Shown piece after piece: positions 8,658 to 62,084 of a stretch of 64,000 nucleotides of DNA. How positions within the stretch are numbered: the first letter of the stretch is position 1; the number at the start of each line of letters is the position of its first letter. Made by a program: the position numbers and the translations under genes. A model generated the notes under the pieces. The model was not told the origin of the DNA. It did no database searches and was given only the letters and a program-made list of their open reading frames with translations. The stretch spans positions 21,412 to 85,411 of the forward strand of contig DATIZX010000055.1 of the NCBI GenBank assembly GCA_035516795.1, in the 5' to 3' direction. This DNA comes from Verrucomicrobiia bacterium (GTDB taxonomy: Bacteria > Verrucomicrobiota > Verrucomicrobiia > Palsa-1439).

Positions 8658-8669
8658 GCTTTAAAGCGG

Positions 8670-11129: not shown

Positions 11130-11144
11130 GGCTTGCGAACGATT

Positions 11145-26337: not shown

Positions 26338-26425
26338 GAGCATCCCGGGGAAGACCTCATCGAATTCGGAACCATCGTTTCCCATGTCACAAGGCCTGCA
26401 ATGGGAAGGCCGGGAGTAGGGTTCC

Positions 26426-32821: not shown

Positions 32822-32897
32822 ATCCACTTGTCAGAGGTGAGGCCAAAACGTATGAGTCGAATATGCACGTTTTGAAAACGGCCCTACTCTAAGGCTT

Positions 32898-34079
32898 ATG
32901 AGGACACGTCTAATTTGTGCATGGTTTTGTTTGTCAGCGGCAAGCGTCTTCGCGGAGCCGTTCTACGATTTAAGTTTTGACGCCGCGTCGAAAAAGGCGG
33001 CGCACACGGGCAAGATCGTTTTGGTGGATTTCTACGCGACCTGGTGTGGTCCATGCCGACTCTTGGATAAACGGACCTGGACCGATGCCGCTGTGATCAA
33101 GATGCTCGAACAAGAAACCGTTGCGTTACGCATCGACGCGGAAAAGCAAACGGACCTTGCTACACGCTACCACATCGACGCCTATCCCAGTGTGCTCCTC
33201 ATTAAACCCAATGGAACAGAACTGGGGCGGTTGGTCGGTTACCGCGATCCCGAAACTTTTCTGGCCGATTTCAACGCTGCGCTTAAGGGAACCTTCCCTC
33301 CGGTCCATGTCGCACCTCTGGGAACCAACGATCCGATGGTTCGAATGGGGCAGGGCCACATGCTGGCCCAAAAGGGAAAGGATGCCGAAGCGTTGCAGGA
33401 GTATTTGTGGTGTTTTGATCACGGCAACGAAGTCAGTTCGTCTTTTGACTTGGTGCGCACCAGCATTCTGTTGGGTTACATCAAGGACTTGGGGCTTCGT
33501 TATCCTGCCGCGAAGAAGGCGATGGAAAGCGAGCGTGACGAGCGACAGGCCAAACTGCTGTCCGGCTCCGCCGATCAACATACCGTCTATGAAATCATAC
33601 AACTCAATAGCGCGCTGGATCAAAGGGAGAAGAACTTGGCGGTGTTCGATCAACTTCCATCTGGAAGCGCTGATCGAGAGTATGTTTTGCCTTTGCTCAT
33701 TGATCAGCTTTTGGGGGCTAAACGCTACGCCGATATTCTGGGCGGCAAGGACGGAAAATCTGCGTTTGCGGAGCTAGTTGACGGATACAATTACATGGTG
33801 GACACGCTGAACCCGAAGAATCCGCAGAGGGGCATGTACGAGAAATCCTATCGTAATTACACGGTAATGGCAGGCGCACACTTCTTCGAGGCCCTGGCCG
33901 GACTGAAGCGGAACGGCGAAGCCAAGGAGTTGGCGCAACAGATACTGAAGTTCGATTCGTCGAGGGCAACTCGCATCATACTGGCCGAAGCTGCAGAGCG
34001 AGCCGACAACGCCGAATTGGCGCAATACGTGAAGCAGCGGGGGATCGTCCGGAACCCGATGAGCGACCACGCCCAATGA
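32898..34079 (+). CDS. secreted thioredoxin-fold protein (WCGPC) with long C-terminal helical extension
   Basis: Signal peptide. Thioredoxin motif FYATWCGPCR. About 270-aa C-terminal region of unknown function. Confidence 0.65.
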   Translation: MRTRLICAWFCLSAASVFAEPFYDLSFDAASKKAAHTGKIVLVDFYATWCGPCRLLDKRTWTDAAVIKMLEQETVALRIDAEKQTDLATRYHIDAYPSVLLIKPNGTELGRLVGYRDPETFLADFNAALKGTFPPVHVAPLGTNDPMVRMGQGHMLAQKGKDAEALQEYLWCFDHGNEVSSSFDLVRTSILLGYIKDLGLRYPAAKKAMESERDERQAKLLSGSADQHTVYEIIQLNSALDQREKNLAVFDQLPSGSADREYVLPLLIDQLLGAKRYADILGGKDGKSAFAELVDGYNYMVDTLNPKNPQRGMYEKSYRNYTVMAGAHFFEALAGLKRNGEAKELAQQILKFDSSRATRIILAEAAERADNAELAQYVKQRGIVRNPMSDHAQ

Positions 34080-34130
34080 GACACAGATCCTCTGCGTTGA
34101 AGGTTTGGTCAAACCACCCTAACTTAAAGC

Positions 34131-40317: not shown

Positions 40318-41366
40318 AGTTTCTCCTCGGTCTGCGAATTGAAAAAGTGGAGTCGAGATTCATCGGGCTGCAACGGAATGGCGCCGCTCCAATCGCCATG
40401 CGGCTCGACCAGAACCTGCAGCTTCTGGCCCTCAACACGCACATTCAGAACGGTGAAGGCACCAAGCGGTTCAATCACTTCTACCTTGCCCGTCAAAGTC
40501 CCCTGGCCGACACGCATGTTTTCCGGACGCACGCCGACCAGCACTTCCTTTTGTCCTTGCAGAGTCTCCAGTCGCGACCGGCTTAGCGGGATTTTCTGGT
40601 TGCCTAACTTCAGTCCGTCCTCGGTCACGCGACATTTAAGAATGTTGATGCGCGGACTGCCGACGAAGTTGGCCACGAAGACGTTCGCGGGTTGATGATA
40701 AATCTCCTCAGGTGTGCCGAGTTGTTGGACGCGGGCGTTGTAAATCACGGCAATGCGGGAAGACATGGTCATCGCCTCGGTCTGGTCGTGCGTGACATAG
40801 ATCACCGTCGCGCCGAGGTCCGCGAACAGACGTTTCAATTCCGCGCGCATTCGTTCCCGCAGAATGGCGTCGAGGTTGGAGAGTGGTTCATCGAGGAGAA
40901 ACGCCTTCGGCTTGCGAATGATGGCGCGTCCGAGCGCCACCCGCTGCCGTTGGCCGCCGCTCAACGCCCGCGGCTTGCGATCCAACAACGCTTCGATGTC
41001 GAGCAGCCGTGCGGTCTCTTTGACCCGGTGTTGGATTTCGCTCGCTGAAATTTCCCTGAGCCTGAGATTGACCGCGATGTTTTCGTAGACCGTCATGTGC
41101 GGATAAAGCGCATAACTTTGAAACACCATCGCGATGTCGCGGTCGGACGGATGCACATGATTGACCCGGCGCTCGCCGATGAAAATCTCACCGTCGGTCA
41201 CGGTTTCCAGGCCCGCGATCATGCGCAGAATCGTGGATTTCCCGCATCCCGACGGCCCGAGCAAGGTCAAAAATCCCTTGTCCTCGACTTCAAAACTGAC
41301 CGACCGAACGGGAGTGACGCCCGGTGCGAAGGTCTTGGTAAGATTATGCACGAACACCCGTGCCAT
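40314..41366 (-). CDS. sugar ABC transporter ATP-binding protein (MalK/UgpC-like)
   Basis: 350 aa. Walker A GPSGCGKST, signature LSGGQRQRVALGRA, Walker B FLLDEPLSNLD, and a C-terminal TOBE regulatory domain. Stop overlaps the SBP start by 4 nt. Confidence 0.9.
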   Translation of the reverse strand: MARVFVHNLTKTFAPGVTPVRSVSFEVEDKGFLTLLGPSGCGKSTILRMIAGLETVTDGEIFIGERRVNHVHPSDRDIAMVFQSYALYPHMTVYENIAVNLRLREISASEIQHRVKETARLLDIEALLDRKPRALSGGQRQRVALGRAIIRKPKAFLLDEPLSNLDAILRERMRAELKRLFADLGATVIYVTHDQTEAMTMSSRIAVIYNARVQQLGTPEEIYHQPANVFVANFVGSPRINILKCRVTEDGLKLGNQKIPLSRSRLETLQGQKEVLVGVRPENMRVGQGTLTGKVEVIEPLGAFTVLNVRVEGQKLQVLVEPHGDWSGAIPLQPDESRLHFFNSQTEEKL

Positions 41367-41626
41367 GGCTGTTCTCCCTTGTTAACGCAAGGCGTTTAAG
41401 CTCTGTGGGAAGCATTTTCACACAAGCAGGAACAACCCGAAAGACAAAATCCGGTTTAATCAGCCAAGCTGAAAGCTATTGGGCCCGAGAGGAGCTCGTC
41501 ATCCTTGCGGCGCGGTTCCACCTCACGGTTTTCGGAGGATCAGGAACACATGCATTCGCTCTGCCAGGGGAAGTCACTTCTCGAGTAATGCCGCAAGACT
41601 TCGGTACGATTCCCATCTCAACAAGC

Positions 41627-42028
41627 TCAGGCCGAGGAACTCCGAGCGCGGCTCAGCGTCAGTCGGCCCTGAGCCACGATTTCCCCGCCGACGCGCAAAA
41701 CGGTTTCGAATTGAGAGAGCGCCCCGAAGTCTTTCGCGAGCATCACTTCAATTTCCAGCGTCTGATCGGGCAATACCGGCTTGATGAATCGGAACTGCGT
41801 CACCGCCGCGAGAAAAGCGGCGCCCGGTTGCTGCCAAAGTACACCGGCCGCTTGCGCGGCGCATTCGATCAGCAGCACGCCCGGCATCAGGGGATTGCCG
41901 GGAAAATGGTCGGCAAAAAACGGCGCGGCCGGGTCGAGCCATTTGCGTCCGCGTCCACGTTTTCCAGCGTCAAGAACCTCGAACGCATCGATGAACGAAA
42001 ATCCGGGACCATGTGGGGTCAAGCTCAT
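41627..42028 (-). CDS. hotdog-fold 3-hydroxyacyl-ACP dehydratase (FabZ/FabA/ApeI-like)
   Basis: 133 aa. FFADHFPGNPLMPGVLLIECAAQ is the catalytic His-containing motif of FabZ-like dehydratases. Start overlaps the LolA-like stop by 4 nt. Confidence 0.7.
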   Translation of the reverse strand: MSLTPHGPGFSFIDAFEVLDAGKRGRGRKWLDPAAPFFADHFPGNPLMPGVLLIECAAQAAGVLWQQPGAAFLAAVTQFRFIKPVLPDQTLEIEVMLAKDFGALSQFETVLRVGGEIVAQGRLTLSRARSSSA

Positions 42029-42669
42029 TCTTGAGGCACCTCGAAAACTTTCTTGTCCAGCGGCTGGTTGCGGCGTACGCGATCAAAATCATAGATGATA
42101 TAGCTGTTCAGAATCAGCCCGATCCGCATCGATTGGATATCCATCGACGGCCACGTCATCACATTTTCCACCGAGCATAGCGGAAACATTTGGAGGCGGT
42201 GTTTGGGGGTCAATGTGACCGTCCTCGTGTTGTTACTGCTGCTGGTGCTCGCGTCGAACAGCCCGGCAAAATTCGTACAACCGTTTTGGAAAAAGCTCAG
42301 CAAGAACTGGACGTTCTGTGTGGGTTTCCCGTGGCGCACTTCCAACTTGTACTTGGCGAGCCGTTTCCTGTCACGCTTGATGTACAATTCGTCGCCGCGG
42401 ACCAGCACGAGTTCGGGCGCGGGATTCGTGAATACAATGGCGAGAAGATCGGGCGCCTGGTAGCAGATGTGGCCCAGGCTGACGACGTGCCGCGGTGGAA
42501 ATGTCCAATGGAACGTTTGCCGCAGATCCGCCTCGAAGGTTCGCGTCGCGACCTGATGCGCGACAAAAACGTCGGCATCGGTGTCGGCCCGGGCGAACGG
42601 TCGGTTCGCGAGCAGGATCAGGGCTGCGCCAACGGTGCGAATTGATACCATTGATCGGGATGATTGCAT
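42025..42669 (-). CDS. LolA-like outer-membrane lipoprotein carrier family protein
   Basis: 214 aa. Signal peptide followed by a LolA-like half-barrel. Gene context is typical of aryl-polyene/xanthomonadin-type clusters. Confidence 0.5.
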   Translation of the reverse strand: MQSSRSMVSIRTVGAALILLANRPFARADTDADVFVAHQVATRTFEADLRQTFHWTFPPRHVVSLGHICYQAPDLLAIVFTNPAPELVLVRGDELYIKRDRKRLAKYKLEVRHGKPTQNVQFLLSFFQNGCTNFAGLFDASTSSSNNTRTVTLTPKHRLQMFPLCSVENVMTWPSMDIQSMRIGLILNSYIIYDFDRVRRNQPLDKKVFEVPQE

Positions 42670-43508
42670 ATTGATTCTCGAAATCGGCCGGCCAGTTCGA
42701 TCGTGTGTGCGCGCACCTCGGCCTGGCGGTCAGGACCCCGCCACTTGGGCCGAAACGGCGGAAGCGCTTCCATGGCGTACTTGCCGGATGGCGTCGCCAG
42801 AATGGTGGCAGGCACGAGGGGCGCGCCTGTCAACAAGCTCAGCCAAACGGGCCCCGTAGAAAACGCCACGTTTCCATGGGGAAGCTCCAGCCAAACGGCA
42901 TCGGCGTTGCCGTGCGGGCGATCCATCAACATGGCGACGCATTTGCCCTGGGCGAGCTGATGGGCGATTTCCACAAAGCTGAACTCGTTGTCTCCGACCT
43001 CCAGCGTTTCTGCGCCCCAACGTTGACGGTAGGCGGCGCGCCACCGTCCCAGGGCCAGACTCGGCTCCGGCAACGATAACACGACCAGCGGGAGGTGAAA
43101 TTGCTCCATCAGCAAACCGCCGAGTTCAAACAACCCGGAATGAACCGTGACCAGCAACGCGCCCTTGCCGTCCGCCAATGCATTTTGCAGGTGCTCGAAA
43201 CCATGTCGCGTCTCCATCAATGCCAGCGCTTCTTCGCGGGTCCGGGCGCCGAGTTGGAAATAATCGGCCAACGTCGCCCCAAAGTTGTGAAACGTGCGCC
43301 GTACCGTTTCTTCGTGAAGGTCTGGGCCACAAACAAGCGCTAGGTTGCGGCGCAACGTCAGTTGCACGTGGGGATGGGTCCAGCGGTAAACTTCGGCCAA
43401 TCCGCGGCCCAGTCGGCGAGCGCGTCCGATTCCGAGCGCGCGCGCCAGCGCTACGCCGGCCTCAAACCAGAGAGCTCGGTAAAATGTCTGGGAATAATGC
43501 GGTTTCAA
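42618..43508 (-). CDS. lysophospholipid acyltransferase (LPLAT; LpxL/HtrB-like lipid A biosynthesis acyltransferase family)
   Basis: 296 aa with the LPLAT family fold and a conserved H(x4)D-type region near the N-terminus. 4-nt overlap with the halogenase gene. Confidence 0.7.
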   Translation of the reverse strand: MKPHYSQTFYRALWFEAGVALARALGIGRARRLGRGLAEVYRWTHPHVQLTLRRNLALVCGPDLHEETVRRTFHNFGATLADYFQLGARTREEALALMETRHGFEHLQNALADGKGALLVTVHSGLFELGGLLMEQFHLPLVVLSLPEPSLALGRWRAAYRQRWGAETLEVGDNEFSFVEIAHQLAQGKCVAMLMDRPHGNADAVWLELPHGNVAFSTGPVWLSLLTGAPLVPATILATPSGKYAMEALPPFRPKWRGPDRQAEVRAHTIELAGRFRESICNHPDQWYQFAPLAQP

Positions 43509-44761
43509 GACTCAGAGTAATCGAGCCGCGGCACGATCGGCACGCGTCGATGAATGGCACAAACGAAATGGAATAATTTGACCCGCCACCACACCTTGAA
43601 CATGCGATGAAAATTCCCGGCCAGAACCGAGTTCACGGCGGGCACCATACCCAAACCGCCCCGGGGATACATCAACACTTCAAATGCGCGATTGTCGTAA
43701 TACATTTCCACCATCTCGCGATAAACGTCCATATAGCGATGCACGTGGCGCGAATAATCTTGTTGTTCCCGGATGCTCAAAGCCCGGCCTTGCGCGTGCG
43801 CGCCGCAAATGAGCCGCGTCGCCAACTGCGCTGATTTCGTGGCGATGTGCACGCCGGACGAAAAAATCGGGTCGATGAACCCGGCCGCGTCGCCGATCAA
43901 CAGGGCGCGGTCCGTGGCCAGTTGCTCGTGATAGTAACTGTAATCGCTGGCTTTGTAGAAGGGGCTGATCTGCAGAGCCTCATTCATCCGCTGCCGCAAT
44001 TCGCGGCTAAGAGCGATCGTTTTTGCGAACCATTCTTCGACGGTGCCACCAAACCGTTTGAAATCATCGAGCGATCGCACCATGCCGACCGACATTTTTC
44101 CGTTTGTCAGGGGAATCAACCAGAACCAGCCGTCTTTGATGCGCACGATGGTGATGTGACCTTCCGCGTCGCCGGGATTTCGGTAGACGCCTTTGAAATG
44201 CGCATAGACCGCGATACGTTTCGGCAGGTTCATCGGTTTTCGGGCCACGCCCAGCGTCCGAGTAAGAAAAGCGTCGCATCCGCTGGCATCGATCAACCAC
44301 CGGCTGCGCGCCTCGCCTTCGCGGTACACTATCCGCCACTCGTCGCCATCCCGACTGACGGTTTTCGCTTCACAGCCTTCGCGCACTTCGCAACCACAAC
44401 TGGCGGCGTGGTCGAGCAAGACCTCGTCGAACCGGGCACGCTCGACCTGGAATGTCTGTCCGTAGCCGGGTACCAATCCGCGGGCGAACCAGAAACGCTG
44501 CCACCGGGACCCGTTGCCGACAAAAAACTCTGCACCGTGTTTCGGCTGGAACCCGGCCGCTTCGATCTTCGGCCACGCGCCGCTTTCTTTGAGGACATCG
44601 TTGCCAAACGGCAACAGCGACTCGCCAATGTGAAAACGTGGAAAAACTTCTTTCTCCAAAATCAACACCCGCCGACCGGCCTTGGCCAGAAACGCCCCGG
44701 CCGTGCTGCCGCCGGGCCCGCCGCCGATAACGATTGTGTCGTAAACCATCGGCGCACTCAT
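43505..44761 (-). CDS. flavin-dependent halogenase-like FAD oxidoreductase
   Basis: 418 aa. GxGxxG (VIGGGPGGS). WxWxIP motif (GWFWLIPL). FxxPxxSxG motif (FIDPIFSSG). Both of the last two are signature motifs of flavin-dependent halogenases. Confidence 0.75.
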   Translation of the reverse strand: MSAPMVYDTIVIGGGPGGSTAGAFLAKAGRRVLILEKEVFPRFHIGESLLPFGNDVLKESGAWPKIEAAGFQPKHGAEFFVGNGSRWQRFWFARGLVPGYGQTFQVERARFDEVLLDHAASCGCEVREGCEAKTVSRDGDEWRIVYREGEARSRWLIDASGCDAFLTRTLGVARKPMNLPKRIAVYAHFKGVYRNPGDAEGHITIVRIKDGWFWLIPLTNGKMSVGMVRSLDDFKRFGGTVEEWFAKTIALSRELRQRMNEALQISPFYKASDYSYYHEQLATDRALLIGDAAGFIDPIFSSGVHIATKSAQLATRLICGAHAQGRALSIREQQDYSRHVHRYMDVYREMVEMYYDNRAFEVLMYPRGGLGMVPAVNSVLAGNFHRMFKVWWRVKLFHFVCAIHRRVPIVPRLDYSES

Positions 44762-45072: not shown

Positions 45073-47355
45073 TTATCCGCCAGCCAAAAGCAAAGCCGAA
45101 GATTCGCCATTGAGCCCCCACACGGGTAGCAGTATTTCGCGCCGCTGGTTGCGGGCAAGTTCGGCGGCGTGCACTGTATTCCAAGCTGCCGACGCCGTAA
45201 AGGCCTCACCGTGGTAGGGAAACGCGGCTGGTGTCCCTTTCATCATTTCCCTTTCGATTTCTCCCAACCAACTATGCTGCGCGGTGTGGCAGACCGCGAT
45301 GTCCGCAGGGAAATGTGCGAAACAATCCTGCGCCGCCTGCCGGACTTCCGCGCGGGCGCGATAAGTGAAGCCACCGGCCATTTGCGCGATGCGCACCCCT
45401 TGTTGCACATTGGATTTTTGCAGTAACAACGCGGCAGCGCCTTCGCTGGGCACAAATCCCGTTCGACCGTGCGGCGGCAGCCAGCCGCCAACCGCATAGG
45501 CATCAATCGAGATCGGGTCGAGTTCGGTCGCGCCGATCACCAGGGCGTATTCGACCAGTTGATTGGCCAACCACACCTCCGCCACCCGCAAGGCGCCCAC
45601 CCAGGCCGCATCATCGCTCACCAACGAATAACAGGGCCCACCAACGCCGAGGATAGCGGCAACGTGACTCGTCGCAGAGTTAAAAACTGTTTCTGGAAAA
45701 ACATTCGGGCTGGCGAACCGCTGGCCGTTCTTCAGAATTCCTTCAAAAAACCGACGGGTCGGCACAACCACGCCCGTGTTGAAAGCCGCAACGATTCCCA
45801 GTCGGTCAGGCCGCAGCGTCGGTTCTGCAGCCATTGCCTGTTGCGCCGCACCGAGCATGAACAACGTGATGGGGCTGGCCCGTCGCACGCGCATTTCGTT
45901 CTGAAGTTTTGCCAGCGGCTCGCGCGTCTGATCCACGCAGAACACCGTGTGCTCACCGCTGGCGACGCTAAGACCTTTCATGCGTTGCGGGGTTTCCGAA
46001 GGCAGCACCGCACCCAGGCCAACGATGGTTAGCGTTGAACGGGCCTCGTGCCTGTTTGGGGCAACCACCGACAGGCGGGAGGCGTGTCCAACGTTTTCCT
46101 CATACCGTTTGAATACCAAGGCGGCATTTGACCCGCCGAACCCCAGGTTCATGGATAAGACTGCGTTCATTTCGGGGTGGCTTTCGCCAACCGCCACCAG
46201 ATTGGTTGCGACGCGCGGCTCCGGCCGCCGCACGTTCAGATTTGGCGGCAAATGACCTGACCGCAGAGCCGCAATGACGAACAGCGCTTCAATGCTGCCC
46301 GCTGCGCCCAGCGTGTGCCCGATGGCGGCTTTGGTCGAACTGATCCGAATCGATTTTGGAATTGGCGAATCAGGCTGTGCGGAATCGCCGTTTCCAAAGA
46401 CTGTGGCGAACGCCGCACATTCACTCGCATCGTTCAGCAGCGTGCCCGTTCCATGCGCGTTCACATAACTGATTTCCGACGCATCGCATTGCGCTCTTGC
46501 GAGGGCCTCTCGCATCGCTCTCACCGCCGGCGCTCCGCATGGATCCGGCTGCGTGAGATGGTGCAAATCGGTCGTATGTCCGTAGCCGGCCAACTCGCAC
46601 AGCATGTGGGCACCTCGCGCGCGAGCATGCGATTCCGATTCGAGAACCGCAAAGGCGGCCGCCTCGCCGAGCATCAGTCCGTTGCGTCCCAAATCGAACG
46701 GGCAACAACGCTCGGGGCTCATGGTTTGTAGACAGTCGAAACCCACGTAGATCAACTCGGTCAAGGCTTCAAAGCCTCCCGCCAAGACGCAGTCATGCGC
46801 GCCGGCACGAATGAGATCGGCGCCATGACCAATCGCATTGGCGCCGCTGGCGCAGGCGTTGGCGATAATGGTGATCGGCCCGCGAAAACCGAGGTGCCGT
46901 TGGAGGTCGTGGATTTGGTGATGCGCCTGATAACGCACGATGTACGGATACAATCCGGCGTTATCCTGCTGCGCCAACATGGCTCGTAGAAACTTTTCGC
47001 CCCAGGCCATCCCGCCGCCGGTCGTGCTTACGGAAAGAGGCAGCCACGCGAACTTTGATCGTCCAGCTTCGTCCAACAATCCGGCTTGCGCCAGTGCTTC
47101 CCGCGCGGCAGGCAGAGCGAGACGCGCGGCCCGCGACAACCGGGACAGTTGTTTGGGAGTGAGATCCGGAAGTCCCGGCAGTTGTGCCGACGCGGCCCGT
47201 TTGCAGCGGCATCCGGCCACATCAAACAGGGTCACCGGCGCGGCGGCGCTTTCTCCGGCGACGATTCGTTGCCACGAGGTCTGGAAATCAAAGCCCAGCG
47301 GCGTCACCGCTCCCATTCCGGTGACAACGACGCGGGTTTGGGGATGAGCGACCAT
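45073..47355 (-). CDS. fused beta-ketoacyl synthase didomain: active KS (Cys-His-His) + KS-like/chain-length-factor-like domain
   Basis: 760 aa. Domain 1 has ANACASG (active Cys), NAHGTGT and KAAIGHTLGAAG. Domain 2 (about 420-760) is KS-fold but lacks the His-His dyad, so it is CLF-like. Confidence 0.8.
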   Translation of the reverse strand: MVAHPQTRVVVTGMGAVTPLGFDFQTSWQRIVAGESAAAPVTLFDVAGCRCKRAASAQLPGLPDLTPKQLSRLSRAARLALPAAREALAQAGLLDEAGRSKFAWLPLSVSTTGGGMAWGEKFLRAMLAQQDNAGLYPYIVRYQAHHQIHDLQRHLGFRGPITIIANACASGANAIGHGADLIRAGAHDCVLAGGFEALTELIYVGFDCLQTMSPERCCPFDLGRNGLMLGEAAAFAVLESESHARARGAHMLCELAGYGHTTDLHHLTQPDPCGAPAVRAMREALARAQCDASEISYVNAHGTGTLLNDASECAAFATVFGNGDSAQPDSPIPKSIRISSTKAAIGHTLGAAGSIEALFVIAALRSGHLPPNLNVRRPEPRVATNLVAVGESHPEMNAVLSMNLGFGGSNAALVFKRYEENVGHASRLSVVAPNRHEARSTLTIVGLGAVLPSETPQRMKGLSVASGEHTVFCVDQTREPLAKLQNEMRVRRASPITLFMLGAAQQAMAAEPTLRPDRLGIVAAFNTGVVVPTRRFFEGILKNGQRFASPNVFPETVFNSATSHVAAILGVGGPCYSLVSDDAAWVGALRVAEVWLANQLVEYALVIGATELDPISIDAYAVGGWLPPHGRTGFVPSEGAAALLLQKSNVQQGVRIAQMAGGFTYRARAEVRQAAQDCFAHFPADIAVCHTAQHSWLGEIEREMMKGTPAAFPYHGEAFTASAAWNTVHAAELARNQRREILLPVWGLNGESSALLLAGG

Positions 47356-47359
47356 CGGA

Positions 47360-48811
47360 CTACGTCAGCCGCTGAAGCGCCGGGTAATATTCCCAGAGCG
47401 GACCCACCACTCCACGGTGGCGGAGTCGGTCAGACAACGGGACAAAGGACGTTGGGGGATTGCCGATGAGCCAGTTGGGGCCTTGCTGGCGGAATTCCTC
47501 CAACTGTTGCAGCAATTCCTCTTTGGTAAGAGCCGGAGAAATGTAGTAAACGGGGCGAAGCAGATCCGCGTCGGCTGACAGCAGTCCCTCGCGCACGGCG
47601 CGCGCGAACAAGGGCGTGCCGGGGTAAATGCGCATACCCGCCAGGGCAAAAATGACCGCGCCAGGCAGCCGCTTCGAATTGGCAAATGTGGTCTGTAGCG
47701 TCTCGCGGGTTTCGCCCGGCCCGCCGCAGATCAGGAAGTGTCCGTAGTGGATGCCGGCGGCCCGCGCCAGTGTGCTGGACTTCAAAATGTCTTCAAAGGT
47801 GATCGCTTTACCGTACTCCGCCAGTACCGAATCGCAGAGGCTATCGGCACCGAATTCGATATGCGTCAGTCCGGCTCGCGCCATCAAATTCATCAGCTCG
47901 GCCGTCAACCCTTTCGGGCGGAGAAAACAGGTCCAGGTCACTTCGACACCCCGCCGCAGTATGGCTTCACAAACACGGGCGATGTGATCGTTTTGCAGGT
48001 TAAAAACCGCATCGACAATAAACACGTGTTTCGTTCCCTGGCGTTGGAGCGTCATCAGCTCAGCCGCGATCGCCTCGGGCTCCCGGCGGCGGATTCGCCG
48101 ACCTTCGATCAAGGGATAGGTGCAATAACAGCACGGCATACTACAACCCCGTTGCGTCTCGATGTTCAACATGGCGCTGTGCTGTAGATAATAGTTCATC
48201 AACTCCGGTGGCCGCTCCGCTGTGAAGGCGTAAATCGGCTCCTCGGGATCACATGGGTTGACGACGATCTGATCCCCGCGCCGGTACACCAGTCCCGGAA
48301 TGCCGCTGGAGTCGTCCCCAGTGGTGATCGCCTTGATCAACTGGACAAACGCGACTTCGCCGGGACCTTGGACACCAAAATCGGCACCGCTCAACCTCAA
48401 AAGCTTTTCGGGGAAAATAGAAAACGCAGTGCCGCCGAGGACGATCGGGGAAGGGCTGCAGCTACGCACTTTATGGCTGAGTGCGATCGCATCGTCGTAA
48501 TAGGTTTCCTGGCTCTGGAACTGCACATCATCCACGTTGCGAATGGAAATCCCAATCACGTGAGGTTGGAATTCAGCGATGGCTTGTTCGAGCGGCACGT
48601 TCATCGCCTGCCGATCCACCCAGCAGGTCGTGTGGCCAGCGTGGCGGAGCGCGGATTCCAAGTGGGCCAACCCCAGCGGGAATACAGGGTATGGCTGGTC
48701 ACAGCGGTTGCTGCTGATCAATAGAACCCGTCGCGAATCCATCGCCGCATTGTAAAAACAGAACTCCTGAAAGCAATCCGTAAATTCCCTTTTCATTCCC
48801 CTCGATGGCAA
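47360..48811 (-). CDS. B12-binding domain radical SAM enzyme
   Basis: N-terminal cobalamin-binding Rossmann-like region. CxxxCxxC (CSMPCCYC). Start probably at M24 (48742). 4-nt gap to the KS gene. Confidence 0.8.
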   Translation of the reverse strand: MPSRGMKREFTDCFQEFCFYNAAMDSRRVLLISSNRCDQPYPVFPLGLAHLESALRHAGHTTCWVDRQAMNVPLEQAIAEFQPHVIGISIRNVDDVQFQSQETYYDDAIALSHKVRSCSPSPIVLGGTAFSIFPEKLLRLSGADFGVQGPGEVAFVQLIKAITTGDDSSGIPGLVYRRGDQIVVNPCDPEEPIYAFTAERPPELMNYYLQHSAMLNIETQRGCSMPCCYCTYPLIEGRRIRRREPEAIAAELMTLQRQGTKHVFIVDAVFNLQNDHIARVCEAILRRGVEVTWTCFLRPKGLTAELMNLMARAGLTHIEFGADSLCDSVLAEYGKAITFEDILKSSTLARAAGIHYGHFLICGGPGETRETLQTTFANSKRLPGAVIFALAGMRIYPGTPLFARAVREGLLSADADLLRPVYYISPALTKEELLQQLEEFRQQGPNWLIGNPPTSFVPLSDRLRHRGVVGPLWEYYPALQRLT

Positions 48812-48919: not shown

Positions 48920-50254
48920 ATGCCAGTAGGAAATTGCCAAATCGTGCGGAAAAGCCGTCTCGCCCAATCATGGCACGTCCTCCTCCCAGCAAGCAATCGA
49001 TCTGGGAGATTCTTGGTGTTTCTCCCCTTGATTTTCTTGGCCCTGCTAACTGCCGCTTGCCGCACATCGGCAACCCGTCAGGTTTGGGGTGTCAATCCAG
49101 CCATCGCCCGTCTCCAAGCGGGCCACAATCTTCAATCTGAAGTCGACGCGTTGGCGCAACCGCTGTTGGACAGCGGAGAGGCCTACGGCATGGTCATCGG
49201 AGTCGTCCTGCCAGACGGAACCACCCAGACGTTCTGTTATGGCCACAATGATGGTCCCGGCGATCCCCGCCCACTGAATGCCGATTCCTTGTTCCAGATC
49301 GGCTCGGTCTCAAAGGTTTTCCTCGCGACGCTGGTCGTGCGCTTGGTGGAACAAGGTCGGTTGCGCTACGACGAGACCGTTCGCAGTATCTTGCCGACCA
49401 ACATCGTCGTCAGTGCCGACGCGGGCCGCCTGACCGTCTACGAACTGCTCACGCACACGAGCGGCCTTTCCCGTGAACTCTGGTGGCCGAACCAGGTCGG
49501 TTCTGTGATTGCCTACTTCGTGTTGGGACGAAATGTTTACGCGCACCTCACCACGCCTTTTCTCTACAATTACCTGCGGGTCTGCCATCTGCACGTACAG
49601 AAACCGCCCCAGTTCAAGTATTCAAACATTGGCTTTGGTTTGCTGGCGAACCTGGTCGCGGTGAAGACGGGTCGCCCCGCAACTGATTTGATTGAGGAGG
49701 AAATCTGCCGGCCACTCAACATGACGAATTCCGTCTTCTTCCTGGACGACAAGCAGAAACGACGCCTGGCTGTTGGCCATGTCGGCAACCAAGCGTGCTG
49801 GAGATTTCGCTCGGCGCGGATGGCTCCCTGGGACATGGGCGATTTGATGCGTCCGGTGAGCGGCATGTACTCGAGCGTCAACGACCTTTTGATTTTTGCG
49901 AAGGCCAACCTGGGAATGTTGCATCTTCCCCTGGAATCCACGCTGGCCGCCACCCATCAGGTACAGATTGAAAGCGCTCGAGGCGGCGAAGCGTTCGGCT
50001 GGATCGTAAGTCGTTTCGACGAAGGACGGCAGATCCTCACCTTCAAAGACGGCATGGTTTCGGGTTATCGAGCCTACATCGGGATGGATCTCAATGCTCG
50101 CGTCGCCGTCGTGGTGCTCAACAACCAGTTCGATTGGGACGACAAGATCGGACACAATCTGCTGCTCCGTCTTGCCGGCGCCTACGGCCGGAAAAACTCA
50201 GCACTGCAAGCCCGTTCCCATCTTTCAAACACACCATTGACTCCCTCCCGGTAA
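48920..50254 (+). CDS. beta-lactamase-fold serine hydrolase (class C/PBP-like esterase family), secreted/lipoprotein
   Basis: SxxK motif (GSVSKVF), a YxN-like region and a hydrophobic signal sequence ending LTAAC. True start probably downstream of the listed ATG. Confidence 0.7.
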   Translation: MPVGNCQIVRKSRLAQSWHVLLPASNRSGRFLVFLPLIFLALLTAACRTSATRQVWGVNPAIARLQAGHNLQSEVDALAQPLLDSGEAYGMVIGVVLPDGTTQTFCYGHNDGPGDPRPLNADSLFQIGSVSKVFLATLVVRLVEQGRLRYDETVRSILPTNIVVSADAGRLTVYELLTHTSGLSRELWWPNQVGSVIAYFVLGRNVYAHLTTPFLYNYLRVCHLHVQKPPQFKYSNIGFGLLANLVAVKTGRPATDLIEEEICRPLNMTNSVFFLDDKQKRRLAVGHVGNQACWRFRSARMAPWDMGDLMRPVSGMYSSVNDLLIFAKANLGMLHLPLESTLAATHQVQIESARGGEAFGWIVSRFDEGRQILTFKDGMVSGYRAYIGMDLNARVAVVVLNNQFDWDDKIGHNLLLRLAGAYGRKNSALQARSHLSNTPLTPSR

Positions 50255-50286: not shown

Positions 50287-51885
50287 ATGCGAGTTCTGTT
50301 GATCGCCCCACGCTTTGCCCGCAATTTGTGGACGTACGAGCGGGCGCTCGCCCTAATTGGACGCAAATCGACTCTGCCACCCCTGGGTCTGATCACGGTC
50401 GCCGCTCTCCTGCCGCAAGATTGGGAGTTCCGCTTGGTGGACCGCAATGTGAGCGAAGTCGCCCAGGCGGATTGGGCTTGGGCGGAACTAATTCTTCTTT
50501 CCGGGATGACCACTCAACGGGAGGATTTCCTGGCGCTCGTTCGCGAAGCCAAACAGCGCGGCAAGCGCGTCGCCGTGGGCGGTCCTTATCCCACCACGCT
50601 GCCGGGTGAAGTCGCGGCTGCAGGCGCCGACTATCTCGCGCTGGGTGAAGGTGAATTGACCATCCCCGCGTTCGTCGCTGCGCTCCAGCAGGGCGAGAAG
50701 GAGGGGTGTTTCAGTCCGAATGGAGAGTTTGCTGACCTGTCGCACACCGTCGTGCCCCGGTTTGATCTACTTGATCTCCGTGCCTACGAAAGCATGTCAG
50801 TGCAGTTCTCGCGCGGCTGTCCGTTCCGTTGTGAGTTTTGCGAGATCGGAGTGCTTTTCGGTTCCCGTGCTCGGGCCAAGACTCCCGCACAGATGTTGGC
50901 TGAGTTCGACCGGCTCCGCGAACTCGGTTGGCGCCGCTCGATCTTCGTTGTGGACGACAATTTCGTCGGCAACCGCGTGAAAGTCCGCGACCTGTTGCGG
51001 GAGTTGAAGCCGTGGCAAAAGCGGCACGGCTATCCCTTCACGCTCAATACCGAGGCGTCGATGGATCTGGCTTCCGACCGGGAATTGCTCGATCTGATGG
51101 CCGACTGCAATTTCAACGGTGTGTTCCTCGGTATCGAAACGCCAGACGACGCCAGCCTCAAACGGGCCGGCAAATTGCAGAACACCCGCTTGCCGCTGGA
51201 AACGGCGGTCGAGACCATCACCCGCGCCGGGCTCTGCGTCATGGGTTCCTTTATCCTTGGCTTCGACGGCGAACAACCCGGCGCCGGCGAACGGATCTGT
51301 GAGTTTATGGAGCGGACTTCCATCCCGACGACCGTGGTTTCCATGCTCCAGGCGTTGCCGCGGACGACGCTGTGGGAGCGGCTGAAGCGCGAAGGACGGT
51401 TACGTGGTGAGGACGCACGGCTGAACCTCGAAACGTTGATGAACTTCGAGCCCACCCGGCCGATGGATGAAATTGCCCGCGAATATTCCGCGGCGCTGTG
51501 GCAGATTTACGACCCGGTCCGGTTTCTCGACCGCACCTACCATCATTTCCAAATGCTCGCTCCGCCCCGTTGGGATTTGAAGGAGCGCACGCCGGACGAA
51601 CATGGTTGGCAGGACATCCGCGCCTTGCTGACACTCTGTTGGCGACAAGGAATCAAACGGCGTAGCCGCTGGAAATTCTGGCAGTACCTGTTCAGGATTG
51701 GACGGAATAATCCGCGCGTGGTCGGCCATTACATCTGTACCCTGGCCCATCTCGAACATTTCCTCTGGATCCGCAAATCCGTTCGCCATCAGGTCGAGAC
51801 CCAATTGGGTGTTCATTCGCTGCCCCAACAAGCCGCGCCACGCAAAACGAGTCCTCGCCCCGATTCACCCGCTCCGGTGATTTGA
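50287..51885 (+). CDS. B12-binding domain radical SAM enzyme with C-terminal DUF4070-like region (HpnJ-like)
   Basis: 532 aa. N-terminal B12-binding domain and CPFRCEFC (CxxxCxxC). Paralogous architecture to 47360..48811. Confidence 0.8.
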   Translation: MRVLLIAPRFARNLWTYERALALIGRKSTLPPLGLITVAALLPQDWEFRLVDRNVSEVAQADWAWAELILLSGMTTQREDFLALVREAKQRGKRVAVGGPYPTTLPGEVAAAGADYLALGEGELTIPAFVAALQQGEKEGCFSPNGEFADLSHTVVPRFDLLDLRAYESMSVQFSRGCPFRCEFCEIGVLFGSRARAKTPAQMLAEFDRLRELGWRRSIFVVDDNFVGNRVKVRDLLRELKPWQKRHGYPFTLNTEASMDLASDRELLDLMADCNFNGVFLGIETPDDASLKRAGKLQNTRLPLETAVETITRAGLCVMGSFILGFDGEQPGAGERICEFMERTSIPTTVVSMLQALPRTTLWERLKREGRLRGEDARLNLETLMNFEPTRPMDEIAREYSAALWQIYDPVRFLDRTYHHFQMLAPPRWDLKERTPDEHGWQDIRALLTLCWRQGIKRRSRWKFWQYLFRIGRNNPRVVGHYICTLAHLEHFLWIRKSVRHQVETQLGVHSLPQQAAPRKTSPRPDSPAPVI

Positions 51886-54180: not shown

Positions 54181-55353
54181 TTATGTGCCGGCTTCGCTGC
54201 AGCGGTATAAGTTCCACCAGATCCGCCGTTGCGACCGGAACACGACCGGCCACGGGAGCCAGCAAGCGAGCCAGGTGAGCGCTCGCAGCCCGCTCCAGCC
54301 CGCCAACACCGGCGCGTCGCGCAGCCGCGGCGCACAGCCAACTCGGGCACATAACCGGGCCGCAACCAGCGCTTCCAACAGCACCGTCACACCCAAGCCG
54401 GTCCAGGTCCACCACGCTGTCGGTTGCCACAACACCGCTCCGAGCCAGCCGAGCACGGGTGTAATGATCAACTCCGCCGCGTAGCCTGCGGGCCGACACC
54501 ACCGCACCGTCTTGTGCCAACGCAGGTAATGCAGGACGGCATCGGTCCACCGGGTTTCCGCGGACAAGGTTTCCAGTGTCACGCTGCTGATGTGGACCGG
54601 CGCGAGCCGTCGGCCCAGGAGATTGTCCTCGGCCATGCGGGCACCTAGCTCGTCCCAGGGCAGGCGCTGTTGGAGGTCGTCGGCGTCGAACAACATCGCT
54701 GCGCCAAATGCGAAACTCGGTTTGCCCCACGCCCGACAGGCCAGCACGCCGGGATAGAATTCGGCGTTTACAAACAGTGCTTCCAACCACATCGGCCGCA
54801 GCGTCACCCGGCGGATGACGTACGGACAGGTCACCAGTCCTGAGTTGGTTGCCGACTGCTCGCCGCGCAAAGTCGTCAACAATCCGGGGACTGCAATCAT
54901 GTCCGCATCGCTCCACAACCAGAGTCGCCCCTGCGCCCGACCGGCCAAAGCATGCCACCACGAGCTTTTCGGACTACGGAAGGTGGCCGGCCGCGGCTGA
55001 CACACGACCGTAAACCGCGCCTTCGAATAGCGCCGCCGCCATGCGGCAAAAATCGGTTCCCAGGCCGCGGCGTCCTGCTGTTCCACACCGAACAACACTT
55101 CCGCGCCGTCACCGGTTTGCGCAACGAAGGACTCGAGCGCGGCAACAAGTTTGGACGAAGGCACCGGCGTGCGCAACGCGCAGAGCGGTTTGAAAACGGT
55201 GAGCGTCTGGGCTGACCCGGTCGTCGGGGTGGGGGAGGCGGCACCTTCGTTTTCGGCCGTCATGCGACAGCGAACCAATCGGAGGGCGTAAATCCACCAA
55301 CCTGCGGCCAGCGCAGTCCAGCCGACCAACAGCCACTCAAGCCGCGGCCACAT
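54181..55353 (-). CDS. membrane-associated GT2-family glycosyltransferase (ceramide glucosyltransferase/HpnI-like)
   Basis: 390 aa. N-terminal TM. DxD-like SDAD, a QxxRW-like LRWHKTVRW, and C-terminal TM helices. Confidence 0.5.
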   Translation of the reverse strand: MWPRLEWLLVGWTALAAGWWIYALRLVRCRMTAENEGAASPTPTTGSAQTLTVFKPLCALRTPVPSSKLVAALESFVAQTGDGAEVLFGVEQQDAAAWEPIFAAWRRRYSKARFTVVCQPRPATFRSPKSSWWHALAGRAQGRLWLWSDADMIAVPGLLTTLRGEQSATNSGLVTCPYVIRRVTLRPMWLEALFVNAEFYPGVLACRAWGKPSFAFGAAMLFDADDLQQRLPWDELGARMAEDNLLGRRLAPVHISSVTLETLSAETRWTDAVLHYLRWHKTVRWCRPAGYAAELIITPVLGWLGAVLWQPTAWWTWTGLGVTVLLEALVAARLCARVGCAPRLRDAPVLAGWSGLRALTWLACWLPWPVVFRSQRRIWWNLYRCSEAGT

Positions 55354-56368
55354 CTGGTTTCACACGAGATGCGACACTGGCGGTGGCTGCGTCAGAATCC
55401 AATCGAAGGCGAAACCAATCGACCGCCTCGCGCACGGTGGCTCGGGCCGGACGCTGGGGCTGCCAACCCAATTCTTCAGCCGCTTTCCGGCAGGAATAGC
55501 GTGCGCGGCGCCGCGCATGGAGCGCTGTTTCCCAACACAAACGATCGTTCCCGGCGGTTTCGCCAATGGCGCCCGCCACGGCGATGATGCCCCACGGCAG
55601 GCAAATCCGTGGCGCATCTTGTGCCGTGCACCCGGCCAGCAACTGCAACAACTCGAACAGCGTCAAATGATGATGCCCCAGCAGGTAACGTTCGCCGCGA
55701 CGACCTCGTTCCGCCACGACCAGAATGCCTTCGGCCAGTTCGCTGACATTGATCACATTCAGACTCGTGTGCGTTGCGAACGGGAAGCGTCCCCGCAAAA
55801 AATCCAAAACCATTCGACCCGTGGGAGTCGGTTCCTCATCCTCGGCGCCAAGCGGCGCCACGGGGTTGGCGATGACGACGTCCAGTCCCCGCCGAGACCA
55901 ATCCAGCGCCACGCGTTCCCCGAGCCATTTGGAACGACGATAATGTTGCCCGGCCGCGACGCGCTCGGGGAAATCCCGCTCGGTGACCAGGCCGTTGCGC
56001 GACTCCAGCACGCTGCACGAACTGACGTGTACGAACCGTTCGACCCGTTGGTCCCAGGCCGCCCGCAACATATTCTCCGTGCCCCGATGGTTGGCGGCTT
56101 CCATCGAAAGCCGGTGGCGCCGGCCAAAGCGGTACAAGCCGCCCAGATGAATCACCGTCTGCACGCCGCGAGCCGCCTGCTGACAGCAGACCGGTTCCAA
56201 CAAATCGCCCACCAGAATTTCCACGCGGTCGCCAAACAATCTCCGCGCCTTGAATTCGTTGCGGCAGAGAAGCCGGACCGTGGCGCCCCGACTGAGAAGC
56301 TTGCGGACGACGAACCGCCCAATAAACCCGGTGCCACCCGTGATGAGAGTTTGCGTCGACCCATGCAT
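55337..56368 (-). CDS. NAD-dependent epimerase/dehydratase (SDR; HpnA-like)
   Basis: Rossmann motif TGGTGFIGRFVVRKLL. Start taken at M31 of the listed ORF. Confidence 0.75.
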   Translation of the reverse strand: MHGSTQTLITGGTGFIGRFVVRKLLSRGATVRLLCRNEFKARRLFGDRVEILVGDLLEPVCCQQAARGVQTVIHLGGLYRFGRRHRLSMEAANHRGTENMLRAAWDQRVERFVHVSSCSVLESRNGLVTERDFPERVAAGQHYRRSKWLGERVALDWSRRGLDVVIANPVAPLGAEDEEPTPTGRMVLDFLRGRFPFATHTSLNVINVSELAEGILVVAERGRRGERYLLGHHHLTLFELLQLLAGCTAQDAPRICLPWGIIAVAGAIGETAGNDRLCWETALHARRRARYSCRKAAEELGWQPQRPARATVREAVDWFRLRLDSDAATASVASRVKPDVAAA

Positions 56369-56390
56369 TGGGGCAGAATCTACGATAATA

Positions 56391-57110
56391 ATGCACGACG
56401 GAAAAGTGATTTTCGTGGCTGACGATTTCGGGATGGACGCGGAGACCAATCGCGCCATTCTCCACGCTCACCATCACGGGGCGCTGCAGGGGGCCAGTTT
56501 GATGATGGGACAACAGGCGACCGACGACGCGGTGCGCCGGGCTCGTGAAAATCCCTCGCTGCAAATCGGTTGGCATCTTCATCTCTGCGATTCGCAACCC
56601 GTGACGTGCCACTCGTGGCCGTGGGGCAATGCGTACGTTCAGGCAGGCTGGAGGATTGGGCTGATGCCCGGCGCGCGTCGCTTGATGCGCCGCGAAGTCG
56701 CCGCGCAATGGGAGTTGTATCAACAAACAGGCTTGCCCTGCGCGTTCGTCAATTCCCATCACCATCTTCATGCCCATCCCATGGTCTACGCCGCGCTGCT
56801 GGAAGTCTTGCCGCGACCGTTCAACGGCTGGCTGCGTCTGGGCAGGCCCTGTTTCTTTGGGCCAACTGAGAACCAGCACCTTTATAGTTGGGCGGACGGA
56901 ATTTTCATGCGGACCCGCCGCCGCCATTGTCCCTTTCGTTGCAGTGACACAATCTGGGGACTCGGGCGGACTTATCGAATGCAGGCACAGGAAGTCATTG
57001 AGGCTGTGCAACGCTTGCCCGAGGGTTTGCATGAGTTTTATTTTCATCCGCGCTCGAAGGACGATGCCGATACACAATGTTTGCTGGAGTTAAGAAAATG
57101 CGGATTCTAA
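56391..57110 (+). CDS. YdjC/ChbG-family carbohydrate deacetylase (HpnK-like)
   Basis: Characteristic N-terminus (VIFVADDFGMDAETNRAIL...G.L.GASLM) of YdjC family. Start taken at M48 of the listed ORF. Confidence 0.65.
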   Translation: MHDGKVIFVADDFGMDAETNRAILHAHHHGALQGASLMMGQQATDDAVRRARENPSLQIGWHLHLCDSQPVTCHSWPWGNAYVQAGWRIGLMPGARRLMRREVAAQWELYQQTGLPCAFVNSHHHLHAHPMVYAALLEVLPRPFNGWLRLGRPCFFGPTENQHLYSWADGIFMRTRRRHCPFRCSDTIWGLGRTYRMQAQEVIEAVQRLPEGLHEFYFHPRSKDDADTQCLLELRKCGF

Positions 57111-57892
57111 TCGCCCTGTCATTGGCCGCGGTCCTGACCGGATGCGCGACTGTTTCGCCGACTGCCGGACCCGGGCGTCCGTTCGATTTCCGACGCGACA
57201 CATTCGCGTTCCACAATGAACTCGTATTCAAATCCTCGGATCCGTCCTCGGTTTCTGGCGTCGCCACGACGCTGCAGAAATTGGAGCATCCCTACACGCG
57301 GCGTTGTTTCATCATGGCGGCCGGCGTCGTGCAATTCTGGAAACATGCGCGCTTCGATCCGTCGGCGCCGCCCGTGGCGGAGAGCGAACTGGCTCGTCGC
57401 ATCCGCGAGGTCCGCGATGACGCGGCTTGGTGGCCCGGTGAACCGCCCACCAAACGCGTCGTGTTTCCCGGATTTGCCGGCTTGCGCGACCTCAGCCAGC
57501 GCGAGGGCCGGTTGCTGCGGGCCAACATGGGCGCGGGCTGGACCACGTATTTTCATCTGCGCAAATTCCCCATGCCGTTCGTGCCTTCGCGCACCCATCA
57601 GGCGCGCTTGTGCCAGGAAGTGCGCGCCTGGCTTCGCTCAGGCCATCCCATGGTTCTCTGGCTCTATAATTTTCCCGACGTCAACATCAACCACGCCGTG
57701 ACCGTCTTCGAGGAAATCGCGCCGCCCAATCCCGATCAGATCGCCTTTCACGTCTACGACCCGAACTACACTGATGCACCGCGCACGCTCATATTTGACC
57801 GGGCCACCAGTGCGTTTTATTACGAGAAGACTTTCTATTTCCCCGGCGGGCTCGTCCACGCTCGGCAGATGTTCACCAGCTTGCTGAGATGA
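57098..57892 (+). CDS. lipoprotein, hypothetical
   Basis: Signal peptide with lipobox LTGC. No recognisable domain. Confidence 0.45.
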   Translation: MRILIALSLAAVLTGCATVSPTAGPGRPFDFRRDTFAFHNELVFKSSDPSSVSGVATTLQKLEHPYTRRCFIMAAGVVQFWKHARFDPSAPPVAESELARRIREVRDDAAWWPGEPPTKRVVFPGFAGLRDLSQREGRLLRANMGAGWTTYFHLRKFPMPFVPSRTHQARLCQEVRAWLRSGHPMVLWLYNFPDVNINHAVTVFEEIAPPNPDQIAFHVYDPNYTDAPRTLIFDRATSAFYYEKTFYFPGGLVHARQMFTSLLR

Positions 57893-61933: not shown

Positions 61934-62084
61934 GTTTCGTGAGGGTTGCCCCCCTTGTCGCGATGTAGCTTCATGCGAAGGCGGATGCTATACTTCGCGG
62001 CTCATGCATCTCGCGAAACGAATCATGTCCTGCAGGCGTCGAGTCACCGTGGGATTGGTTGGCCTTCGAGCGGCCAACAAAACC

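Follow-up and report, generated by a model that had tools for sequence, protein, structure and literature searches.

A probable single-chain ketosynthase/chain length factor enzyme encoded in a Verrucomicrobial lipid operon

We analyzed a 64,000-nucleotide stretch from the genome assembly of a Verrucomicrobiia bacterium (GCA_035516795.1, contig DATIZX010000055.1, positions 21,412 to 85,411 of the forward strand), referred to below as the window. On its minus strand, positions 45073-47355 hold one uninterrupted open reading frame (ORF) of 760 amino acids plus a stop codon, with an ATG start and no internal stop. A first-pass annotation had described this gene as a ketosynthase (KS) and a chain length factor (CLF)-like domain joined in a single polypeptide, and the continuous frame bears out the single polypeptide. 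An identical protein (P0001) is on record from a metagenome-assembled genome of a 'Verrucomicrobiae bacterium', where it is annotated as a beta-ketoacyl-ACP synthase family protein (ACP, acyl carrier protein). The gene and its parts are as follows.

45073..47355, minus strand: fused KS-CLF gene; single ORF, 760 amino acids plus stop codon
46099..47355, minus strand: KS domain (residues 1-419), containing the Cys168/His301/His347 triad as well as Lys342 and Phe406; PF00109 and PF02801
46033..46098, minus strand: interdomain linker, residues 420-441; predicted local distance difference test (pLDDT) below 50 at residues 423-437; predicted disorder; poorly conserved
45076..46032, minus strand: CLF-like domain, residues 442-760, KS fold, shortened, Asp581 invariant; PF00109 at 30.8 bits, hhalign probability 99%, AlphaFold2 (AF2) and Foldseek

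In the N-terminal half, residues 7-375 match the Pfam families PF00109 (E = 2e-39) and PF02801 (E = 4e-32). The motifs ANACASG (at residue 165), HGTGT (residue 301) and GHTLGAAG (residue 346) place Cys168 at nucleotides 46852-46854, His301 at 46453-46455 and His347 at 46315-46317, and they line up with the catalytic motifs of Bacillus subtilis FabF (4LS5). All three residues are invariant in an alignment of 28 fused homologues, as are Lys342 and Phe406, which confirms the complete triad reported in the first-pass annotation. Among NCBIfam models the nearest is FabF (TIGR03150), but the score of 346.9 bits falls under the equivalog cut-off of 493.75, indicating a FabF-like KS rather than the housekeeping FabF. 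Searches of solved structures in the PDB matched this half to B. subtilis FabF (4LS5, 1e-69) and 9S5H_B (7e-68) and, further away, to the actinorhodin KS (4e-52) and Iga11 (9e-49). We classify the N-terminal half as a FabF-like KS with a complete Cys-His-His triad.

The relationship of the C-terminal half to the KS half emerges only with profiles. Direct BLASTP of one half against the other gave no significant match (E = 0.37), and a single-sequence phmmer search of the PDB with the C-terminal half returned only a weak match to FabF (4e-5). The last 320-330 residues alone nevertheless pass the PF00109 cut-off (30.8 bits vs 20.8, E = 2.9e-7). A profile of 40 sequences was needed to reach solved CLFs. 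This profile matched Thermus thermophilus FabF (1J3N, 7e-20) and the CLF-type chains 9S5H_C (9e-13), 1TQY_B (1e-5), 6KXD_B (Iga12, 2e-5) and 6SMO_C (AntE, 4e-5). A profile-profile comparison (hhalign) of the stand-alone KS family with the CLF family gave a probability of 99% (E = 5e-18 over 303 columns). The profile-profile alignment pairs the catalytic positions as follows.

KS Cys168: CLF-domain Asp582
KS His301: CLF-domain Thr691
KS His347: CLF-domain Glu717
KS Lys342: CLF-domain Phe712

The His dyad is thus missing from the C-terminal half, as the first-pass annotation had noted when it called this domain CLF-like. That annotation did not mention the nucleophilic Cys, which is lost as well, and its loss is the stronger reason for the CLF-like call. 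Across the 28 fused homologues, position 582 is variable (D/E/N/S/G) and never Gln, whereas the adjoining Asp581 never changes; an acidic residue, Glu or Asp, occupies position 717 in all but one (27/28). Asp581 is invariant in 40 stand-alone family members, too. The AF2 model of the C domain alone reached a pLDDT of 91.6 and a predicted TM-score (pTM) of 0.91. Its best Foldseek matches were the actinorhodin CLF (1TQY_B, query TM-score (TMq) 0.81) and the ishigamide CLF Iga12 (6KXE_B, TMq 0.76-0.77), followed by ordinary KS chains and AntE (6SMO). At approximately 320 residues, the domain has a shortened second thiolase half but keeps the core of that half. We assign it as a triad-less, CLF-like domain of KS fold.

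Residues 553-564 of this domain (nucleotides about 45664-45699) form an invariant motif, FPETVFNSATSH. The form of the motif in the CLF family, FPETV(F/Y)N(S/A)P(A/T)SH, resembles the FPNTVLNAPAS of 9S5H_C, a KS chain without the triad that has Val at the Cys position, whereas the FabF sequence there differs (PFFIPMMIANMASAH). The common pattern, FPxTVxNxPxS, may be a shared derived feature of CLFs of the fatty acid synthase (FAS) type. H564, E611, E638-G-A and the FPETV motif are invariant C-domain residues with matching residues in T. thermophilus FabF, and we take them to be generally conserved structural positions of FabF sequences.

The linker between the two domains falls exactly where stop and start codons overlap in split orthologues. 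Its sequence is unrelated between homologues, and the segment from N410 to V450 spans 31-85 residues, a variation in length of about 50 residues that is always in frame. A full-length AF2 model built on the 28-sequence alignment had a pLDDT of 88.2 and a pTM of 0.93, with pLDDT below 50 only in the linker (residues 423-437) and at residues 529-532. The top whole-chain Foldseek match in the PDB was 6RIW, 'PfaC Keto synthase-Chain length factor' (E = 2e-46, TMq 0.79, 896 columns), at just 18% identity. All other matches were single KS chains that cover half the model with a TMq of about 0.50. Because the whole model superposes on 6RIW, the predicted domain arrangement is that of a solved natural KS-CLF didomain, and the two domains are predicted to form a pseudo-twofold pair sharing an acyl tunnel.

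Approximately 85 fused homologues of 700-820 residues, 35-80% identical to the window protein, come from Verrucomicrobiota metagenomes in independent NCBI, JGI, ENA and Logan assemblies. Split forms exist as well. In two related loci, L001 and L002, a KS of 418 residues (58% identical to the N-terminal half) is followed by a CLF-like protein of 339 residues (39% identical to the C-terminal half), and the stop and start codons of the two genes overlap by 4 nt (ATGA). A third split pair, in L004, has a 4-nt GTGA overlap; its KS is about 42-44% identical and its CLF about 32-37%. Gene order in L001 matches that in the window: KS, CLF, ACP, halogenase, acyltransferase, LolA and dehydratase (DH).

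To place the fusion within its family, we searched 1.84 billion cluster representatives exhaustively with the CLF domain and obtained 1330 relatives at E <= 1e-3. Only 9 of the 150 best cluster representatives are fused (600-820 residues); the remaining 141 stand alone, mostly at 330-350 residues. When the CLF profile was used for the search instead, each of the top 120 proteins stood alone, at 328-367 residues, and the organisms named among them are given as Verrucomicrobiia, Verrucomicrobiota, Methylacidiphilales or unclassified bacterium. The fusion is a minority architecture in the CLF family, which, on its few named members, belongs to Verrucomicrobiota. In a neighbor-joining tree of the KS domains, fused and split forms are interleaved and there are two deep fused clades. 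This pattern suggests more than one fusion or fission event, in a tree that carries no support values and may include contig-end fragments among its 'split' entries (for example, P0082). As a joining of neighboring genes whose products interact, the fusion is evolutionarily commonplace.

Seven closely packed genes on the minus strand, separated by anything from a 29-nt gap to short overlaps, form the operon, and KS-CLF is the second of them. The other six, from the upstream end, and the further genes of interest nearby are as follows.

47360..48811, minus strand: B12-binding radical S-adenosylmethionine (SAM) enzyme, 4 nt upstream of the KS-CLF start; PF02310, PF04055; TIGR04072
44771..45043, minus strand: ACP, 90 residues; PF00550; weak matches to PRK09184 phosphopantetheine-binding protein and to the AmcB ACP
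43505..44761, minus strand: flavin-dependent halogenase-like enzyme, 418 residues; PF04820
42618..43508, minus strand: LpxL/PIM-type lipid acyltransferase; PF03279, 96 bits
42025..42669, minus strand: LolA-like periplasmic lipid carrier; weak match to NF053544 (flexirubin LolA2), E = 4.6e-12, under cut-off
41627..42028, minus strand: FabA/ApeI-like hot-dog dehydratase, 133 residues, last operon gene; PF07977, 59.7 bits; PF22818
50287..51885, plus strand: second B12-binding radical SAM enzyme, with DUF4070, divergent; Pfam
54181..55353, minus strand: HpnI-like GT21 glycosyltransferase; Pfam/NCBIfam, below hopanoid equivalog cut-offs
55337..56458, minus strand: HpnA-like short-chain dehydrogenase/reductase (SDR); Pfam/NCBIfam, below hopanoid equivalog cut-offs
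57077..57892, plus strand: DUF8321/DUF8322 homologue, putative lipoprotein; 40.6% identical to L001 7184-7987; weak lipoprotein-signal match

The radical SAM enzyme at 47360-48811 passes TIGR04072, 'lipid biosynthesis B12-binding/radical SAM protein' (rSAM_ladder_B12), with 409.7 bits against a cut-off of 360. For the halogenase-like enzyme, the best PDB match is CndH (3E1T, 4.5e-54), then ChlB4, PltA and CmlS; its GWFWLIP sequence represents the WxWxIP motif, and it retains the Lys that aligns with CndH position 76. The dehydratase at 41627-42028 scores 29.1 bits against the ApeI-like family PF22818 (cut-off 28.5). A 224-residue ORF on the plus strand (41360-42034) is an antisense shadow of this gene and was noticed because the shadow matched L001; a longest-ORF approach would miss the 133-residue dehydratase. 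Promoter and terminator scans of the operon stayed at chance level.

Related loci preserve much of this arrangement. An ACP gene follows the KS-CLF gene, or the split pair, in L001, L006, L008 and L009, and in L006 the ACP is the only such gene alongside the fused homologue. A gene in the LolA-like position recurs in L001, L008 and L009. The core of L008 comprises the SDR, GT21, KS-CLF, ACP, halogenase, acyltransferase, an approximately 210-residue protein at the LolA-like position and the DH, with an adenosine monophosphate (AMP)-ligase and a non-B12 radical SAM gene alongside. L009 has KS-CLF, ACP, halogenase, an MMPL-acyltransferase fusion, an approximately 220-residue protein at the LolA-like position and the DH. 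The fusion of an LpxL-type acyltransferase to an MMPL transporter (990-1072 residues) occurs in L009 (13937-17155) and in L001 (11906-14878), and is a second gene fusion in the same pathway family.

The radical SAM genes are less constant. Two of them also lie beside the fused KS-CLF gene in L005 (5935-8999), where they are 64% identical to 47360-48811 and 68% identical to 50287-51885. This B12 radical SAM pair accompanies the fusion only in the window and L005; the enzyme is missing in L008, L009, L006 and L001, and we therefore rejected a stable association between it and the fusion. The two divergent genes look like an accessory module. Between them lies a beta-lactamase/AmpH-family serine hydrolase (48920-50254, plus strand) that has no counterpart at the L005 position and could be a pathway esterase or thioesterase, or unrelated.

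The presence of HpnI-, HpnA- and HpnJ-like genes made a hopanoid cluster a candidate. We rejected it because the scores are far below the equivalog cut-offs and the genes travel with the KS-CLF cluster in relatives. The SDR and GT21 pair lies directly upstream of the fused KS-CLF gene in L008 and close upstream of the split pair in L001, and L001 7184-7987, which resembles the putative lipoprotein of the window, is annotated PF26995/PF26997. The co-occurrence of the GT21, SDR and DUF8321/8322-like genes with the KS/CLF cluster in L001 and L008 points to a glycosylated head group or acceptor and away from the chemistry of hopanoids.

Given the domain composition, residue losses, conservation, split orthologues and predicted pseudo-dimer geometry, we infer a working scheme for catalysis, chain-length control, tailoring order and product. 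We think it likely that the protein is a natural single-chain KS/CLF enzyme of a lipid operon, in which the N-terminal half is the sole catalytic half and the C-terminal half shapes the tunnel. The growing acyl chain would be loaded on Cys168 and condensed with malonyl-ACP through His301 and His347 in a decarboxylative Claisen reaction. The degenerate C domain would pack on the KS across the usual thiolase-fold dimer interface, replacing the second subunit; because it occupies this place, it would shape the acyl tunnel and so influence chain length and substrate, in the manner of CLFs from the actinorhodin, ishigamide and aryl polyene systems and of the anammox FabF2/FabFmut pair. The flexible linker of approximately 22 residues would replace the stop/start overlap between ancestral, separate genes for KS and CLF, and the fusion would fix a 1:1 stoichiometry and block KS homodimers. 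Working with the downstream ACP and the ApeI-like dehydratase, the enzyme would yield an unsaturated chain, with ketoreduction and the other functions absent from the window supplied elsewhere in the genome, for example by FAS II. This chain would probably be halogenated on the ACP and possibly modified by the B12 radical SAM enzyme. The LpxL-type acyltransferase would move it to a lipid or glycolipid acceptor, and the LolA-like carrier would deliver the product to the outer membrane. Judging from its gene content, the operon probably produces an outer-membrane lipid that is halogenated and of the acyl or polyene kind.

Four observations weigh against this scheme. Pfam and NCBIfam scans of the larger ORFs in the window, on which all our gene-content negatives are based, found no FabG-type ketoreductase, enoyl reductase, malonyl transferase or starter-activating ligase, so these functions must come from elsewhere. 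The fused homologues in L003 (8001-10274) and L007 (9001-11334), at 36-38% identity, form a separate deep clade in the neighbor-joining tree and sit among housekeeping genes without an ACP or tailoring gene in the vicinity, so the role of the family may not be bound to the cluster. AF2 modelled a single chain, which makes an intramolecular pseudo-dimer indistinguishable from a domain-swapped two-chain dimer. The short linkers of some homologues (roughly 12 residues) might favor a domain-swapped homodimer, in which the KS from one chain pairs with the CLF from the other, or a homodimer built on KS-KS contacts with the CLF-like domains at its periphery, but the pTM of the intramolecular arrangement and its superposition on the solved single-chain PfaC didomain make either assembly quite improbable. 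Finally, the former active site of the C domain contains the invariant Asp581 and the conserved Glu/Asp717, and the domain is possibly not merely passive. It might have chemistry of its own, either malonyl-ACP decarboxylation for priming or another step that uses these two acidic residues, which sit where the Cys-His pair used to be and are retained in 28 fused and 40 stand-alone members (Asp581) and in 27 of the 28 fused ones (717). In aromatic type II CLFs, a Gln at the Cys position decarboxylates malonyl-ACP for priming. The anammox pair FabF2/FabFmut decarboxylates malonyl-ACP only with both proteins (bioRxiv 10.64898/2026.05.19.726425). In the present family, however, the exact Cys position varies and is never Gln, the residues H564, E611, E638-G-A and FPETV match those of T. 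thermophilus FabF, and the second thiolase half is shortened. The second thiolase half carries most of the catalytic machinery in KS enzymes. Overall, we regard independent chemistry in the C domain as rather unlikely.

Two further explanations concern the origin of the single chain itself. The first-pass annotation had weighed, and judged unsupported, a frameshift that hides two genes; close relatives do have two separate genes with 4-nt overlaps. Against an assembly or frameshift artefact stand the continuous ORF, the fused proteins P0002-P0007 (77-80% identity, from independent JGI, ENA, Logan and NCBI assemblies), the in-frame linkers of differing length across the approximately 85 fused homologues, and split orthologues that keep the same order; we rejected it as next to impossible. 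The protein might instead be a fragment or relative of a PfaC-type polyunsaturated fatty acid (PUFA) synthase, whose KS-CLF didomain has been solved (6RIW; Santin et al. 2020, Biochemistry 59:4735, as cited in PMC9702510). That didomain is the best whole-chain structural match (TMq 0.79), and it, too, has an active KS followed by a triad-less CLF on one chain. PfaC, however, belongs to a multidomain megasynthase: its own polypeptide includes DH domains, and its partners are PfaA, PfaB and PfaD. The window protein, by contrast, is a didomain that stands free within a discrete operon of type II style, and it is most closely related to split gene pairs. The 760-residue protein ends after the CLF domain; the scans found neither DH domains in it nor genes resembling pfaA, pfaB or pfaD in the window. 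By sequence it lies nearest to FabF-like KS proteins that are discrete and to CLF-like proteins of approximately 340 residues that stand alone. Together with the 18% identity to 6RIW, these features indicate that the fusion arose independently of the PUFA synthase fusion, and we give a PfaC derivation almost no credence. The first-pass annotation had also called a covalent KS-CLF fusion atypical. This holds for discrete type II and aryl polyene (APE) systems and does not hold for all polyketide and fatty acid synthases, as the PfaC didomain attests.

Returning to the single-chain KS/CLF enzyme, its features are those expected of a system that works like a type II KS/CLF pair with the topology of the PfaC didomain. 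The actinorhodin KS/CLF (1TQY), ishigamide Iga11/Iga12 (6KXD/E/F) and AntD/AntE (6SMO) systems likewise combine an active KS with an inactive KS-fold partner. Their CLFs are the best structural matches of the C domain, and the profile finds 1TQY_B, 6KXD_B and 6SMO_C at about 1e-5. In all of these systems, however, KS and CLF are two separate proteins, and their CLFs (402, 358 and 352 resolved residues) are longer than the approximately 320-residue domain in the window. Where aromatic CLFs have Gln at the Cys position, the window family has a variable residue (D/E/N/S/G) beside the invariant Asp.

One parallel in gene content is with APE systems (ApeO/ApeC, 6QSP). Like these, the window combines KS and CLF with an ACP, an ApeI-like dehydratase, an LpxL-type acyltransferase and a LolA-like carrier, and related clusters contain an AMP-ligase and an MMPL transporter in addition; the scans found no MMPL gene in the window itself. 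In described APE systems, the KS ApeO and the CLF ApeC are separate proteins (PMC8358021), as the first-pass annotation had it, whereas here the two are fused. The same paper describes an Acinetobacter baumannii ApeO/ApeC structure; ApeC is a half-size CLF with a single thiolase half (PMC8358021). The C domain of the window protein is not ApeC-like because it keeps a shortened second thiolase half, and no ApeC chain appears in the best 60 of the 187 PDB matches of the CLF profile. A single ACP is present in the window, and the scans found in it no second KS (ApeR), second ACP, ApeQ or thioesterase. Without a half-size, separate ApeC, a second KS, a second ACP or a dedicated ketoreductase, the cluster is best described, at the level of predicted genes, as APE-like and not as a canonical APE cluster.

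A second parallel comes from anammox bacteria, in which 'Cluster I' comprises an ACP, FabZ, FabF2, FabFmut, a flavin adenine dinucleotide (FAD) enzyme and a cobalamin radical SAM enzyme, and in which amxFabFmut has Val at the Cys position (bioRxiv 10.64898/2026.05.19.726425). Both clusters pair a FabF-like KS with a FabF homologue that lacks the triad, and both also encode an ACP, a dehydratase of the FabZ type, an FAD enzyme and a radical SAM enzyme that uses cobalamin; the radical SAM enzyme of the window passes the rSAM_ladder_B12 model, and its gene adjoins the FabF-like gene. The best CLF-type match of the C-domain profile, 9S5H_C (9e-13), shares the FPxTVxNxPxS motif and is probably amxFabFmut, as the Val in place of the Cys suggests; no PDB code is given in the preprint. 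The differences are also clear. FabF2 and FabFmut are separate, full-length proteins (about 412 residues) encoded in the order mut then KS, the anammox FAD enzyme is phytoene-desaturase-like whereas the window has a CndH/PltA-type halogenase, and the B12 radical SAM enzyme is missing from most related Verrucomicrobial clusters. With the PDB code unstated, T. thermophilus FabF outscoring 9S5H_C against the profile, gene order differing and the B12 enzyme no constant companion of the fusion, we treat the anammox link as a lead and not a finding. A bolder version, which we consider a long shot, is that the KS-CLF, the TIGR04072 radical SAM enzyme, the ACP and the FabZ/ApeI-type dehydratase form a Verrucomicrobial counterpart of Cluster I, that the CLF family and amxFabFmut share ancestry, as the FPxTVxNxPxS motif would suggest, and that the product is a halogenated fatty or polyene lipid remodelled (C-methylated or cyclized) by the radical SAM enzyme. 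If so, the cluster would offer a simpler, single-chain comparator for the unsolved biosynthesis of ladderane-type lipids.

KS/CLF pairs set the chain length of type II polyketides and APE-type lipids and are hard to express as stoichiometric heterodimers. A natural free-standing fusion means that such a pair tolerates a short flexible tether, and the split relatives in the same operon context provide a ready comparison of fused and split forms. For structure determination and engineering, the KS-CLF protein also has the convenience of being encoded by one gene. A search of the open literature for phrases describing fused KS-CLF proteins returned only papers on PUFA synthases. As a didomain that stands free within a discrete lipid or pigment cluster of type II style, the KS-CLF protein is a variant on a known theme, real but modest; with genes for interacting subunits adjacent and a solved precedent in PfaC, the surprise is moderate. 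The fusion marks an uncharacterized, widespread Verrucomicrobial lipid cluster that has enzymes in common with those for APE pigments and with the anammox ladderane cluster, and its product is probably halogenated and outer-membrane-bound.

Elsewhere in the window, genes related to the cell envelope lie around the cluster at 6264-12257 (minus strand) and 62004-63176 (plus strand): two YfhO-like membrane proteins, LptF/G and the lipid A deacylase LpxR. They fit the theme of an outer-membrane lipid, maybe by coincidence. A run of plus-strand genes at 21056-35939 is devoted to alpha-glucan and trehalose metabolism and is unrelated to the KS-CLF gene; it includes a TreS-maltokinase-like fusion, GlgB-like and CBM48 amylases, DUF3459 enzymes and a GH15 enzyme with a trehalase-like N-terminal domain.

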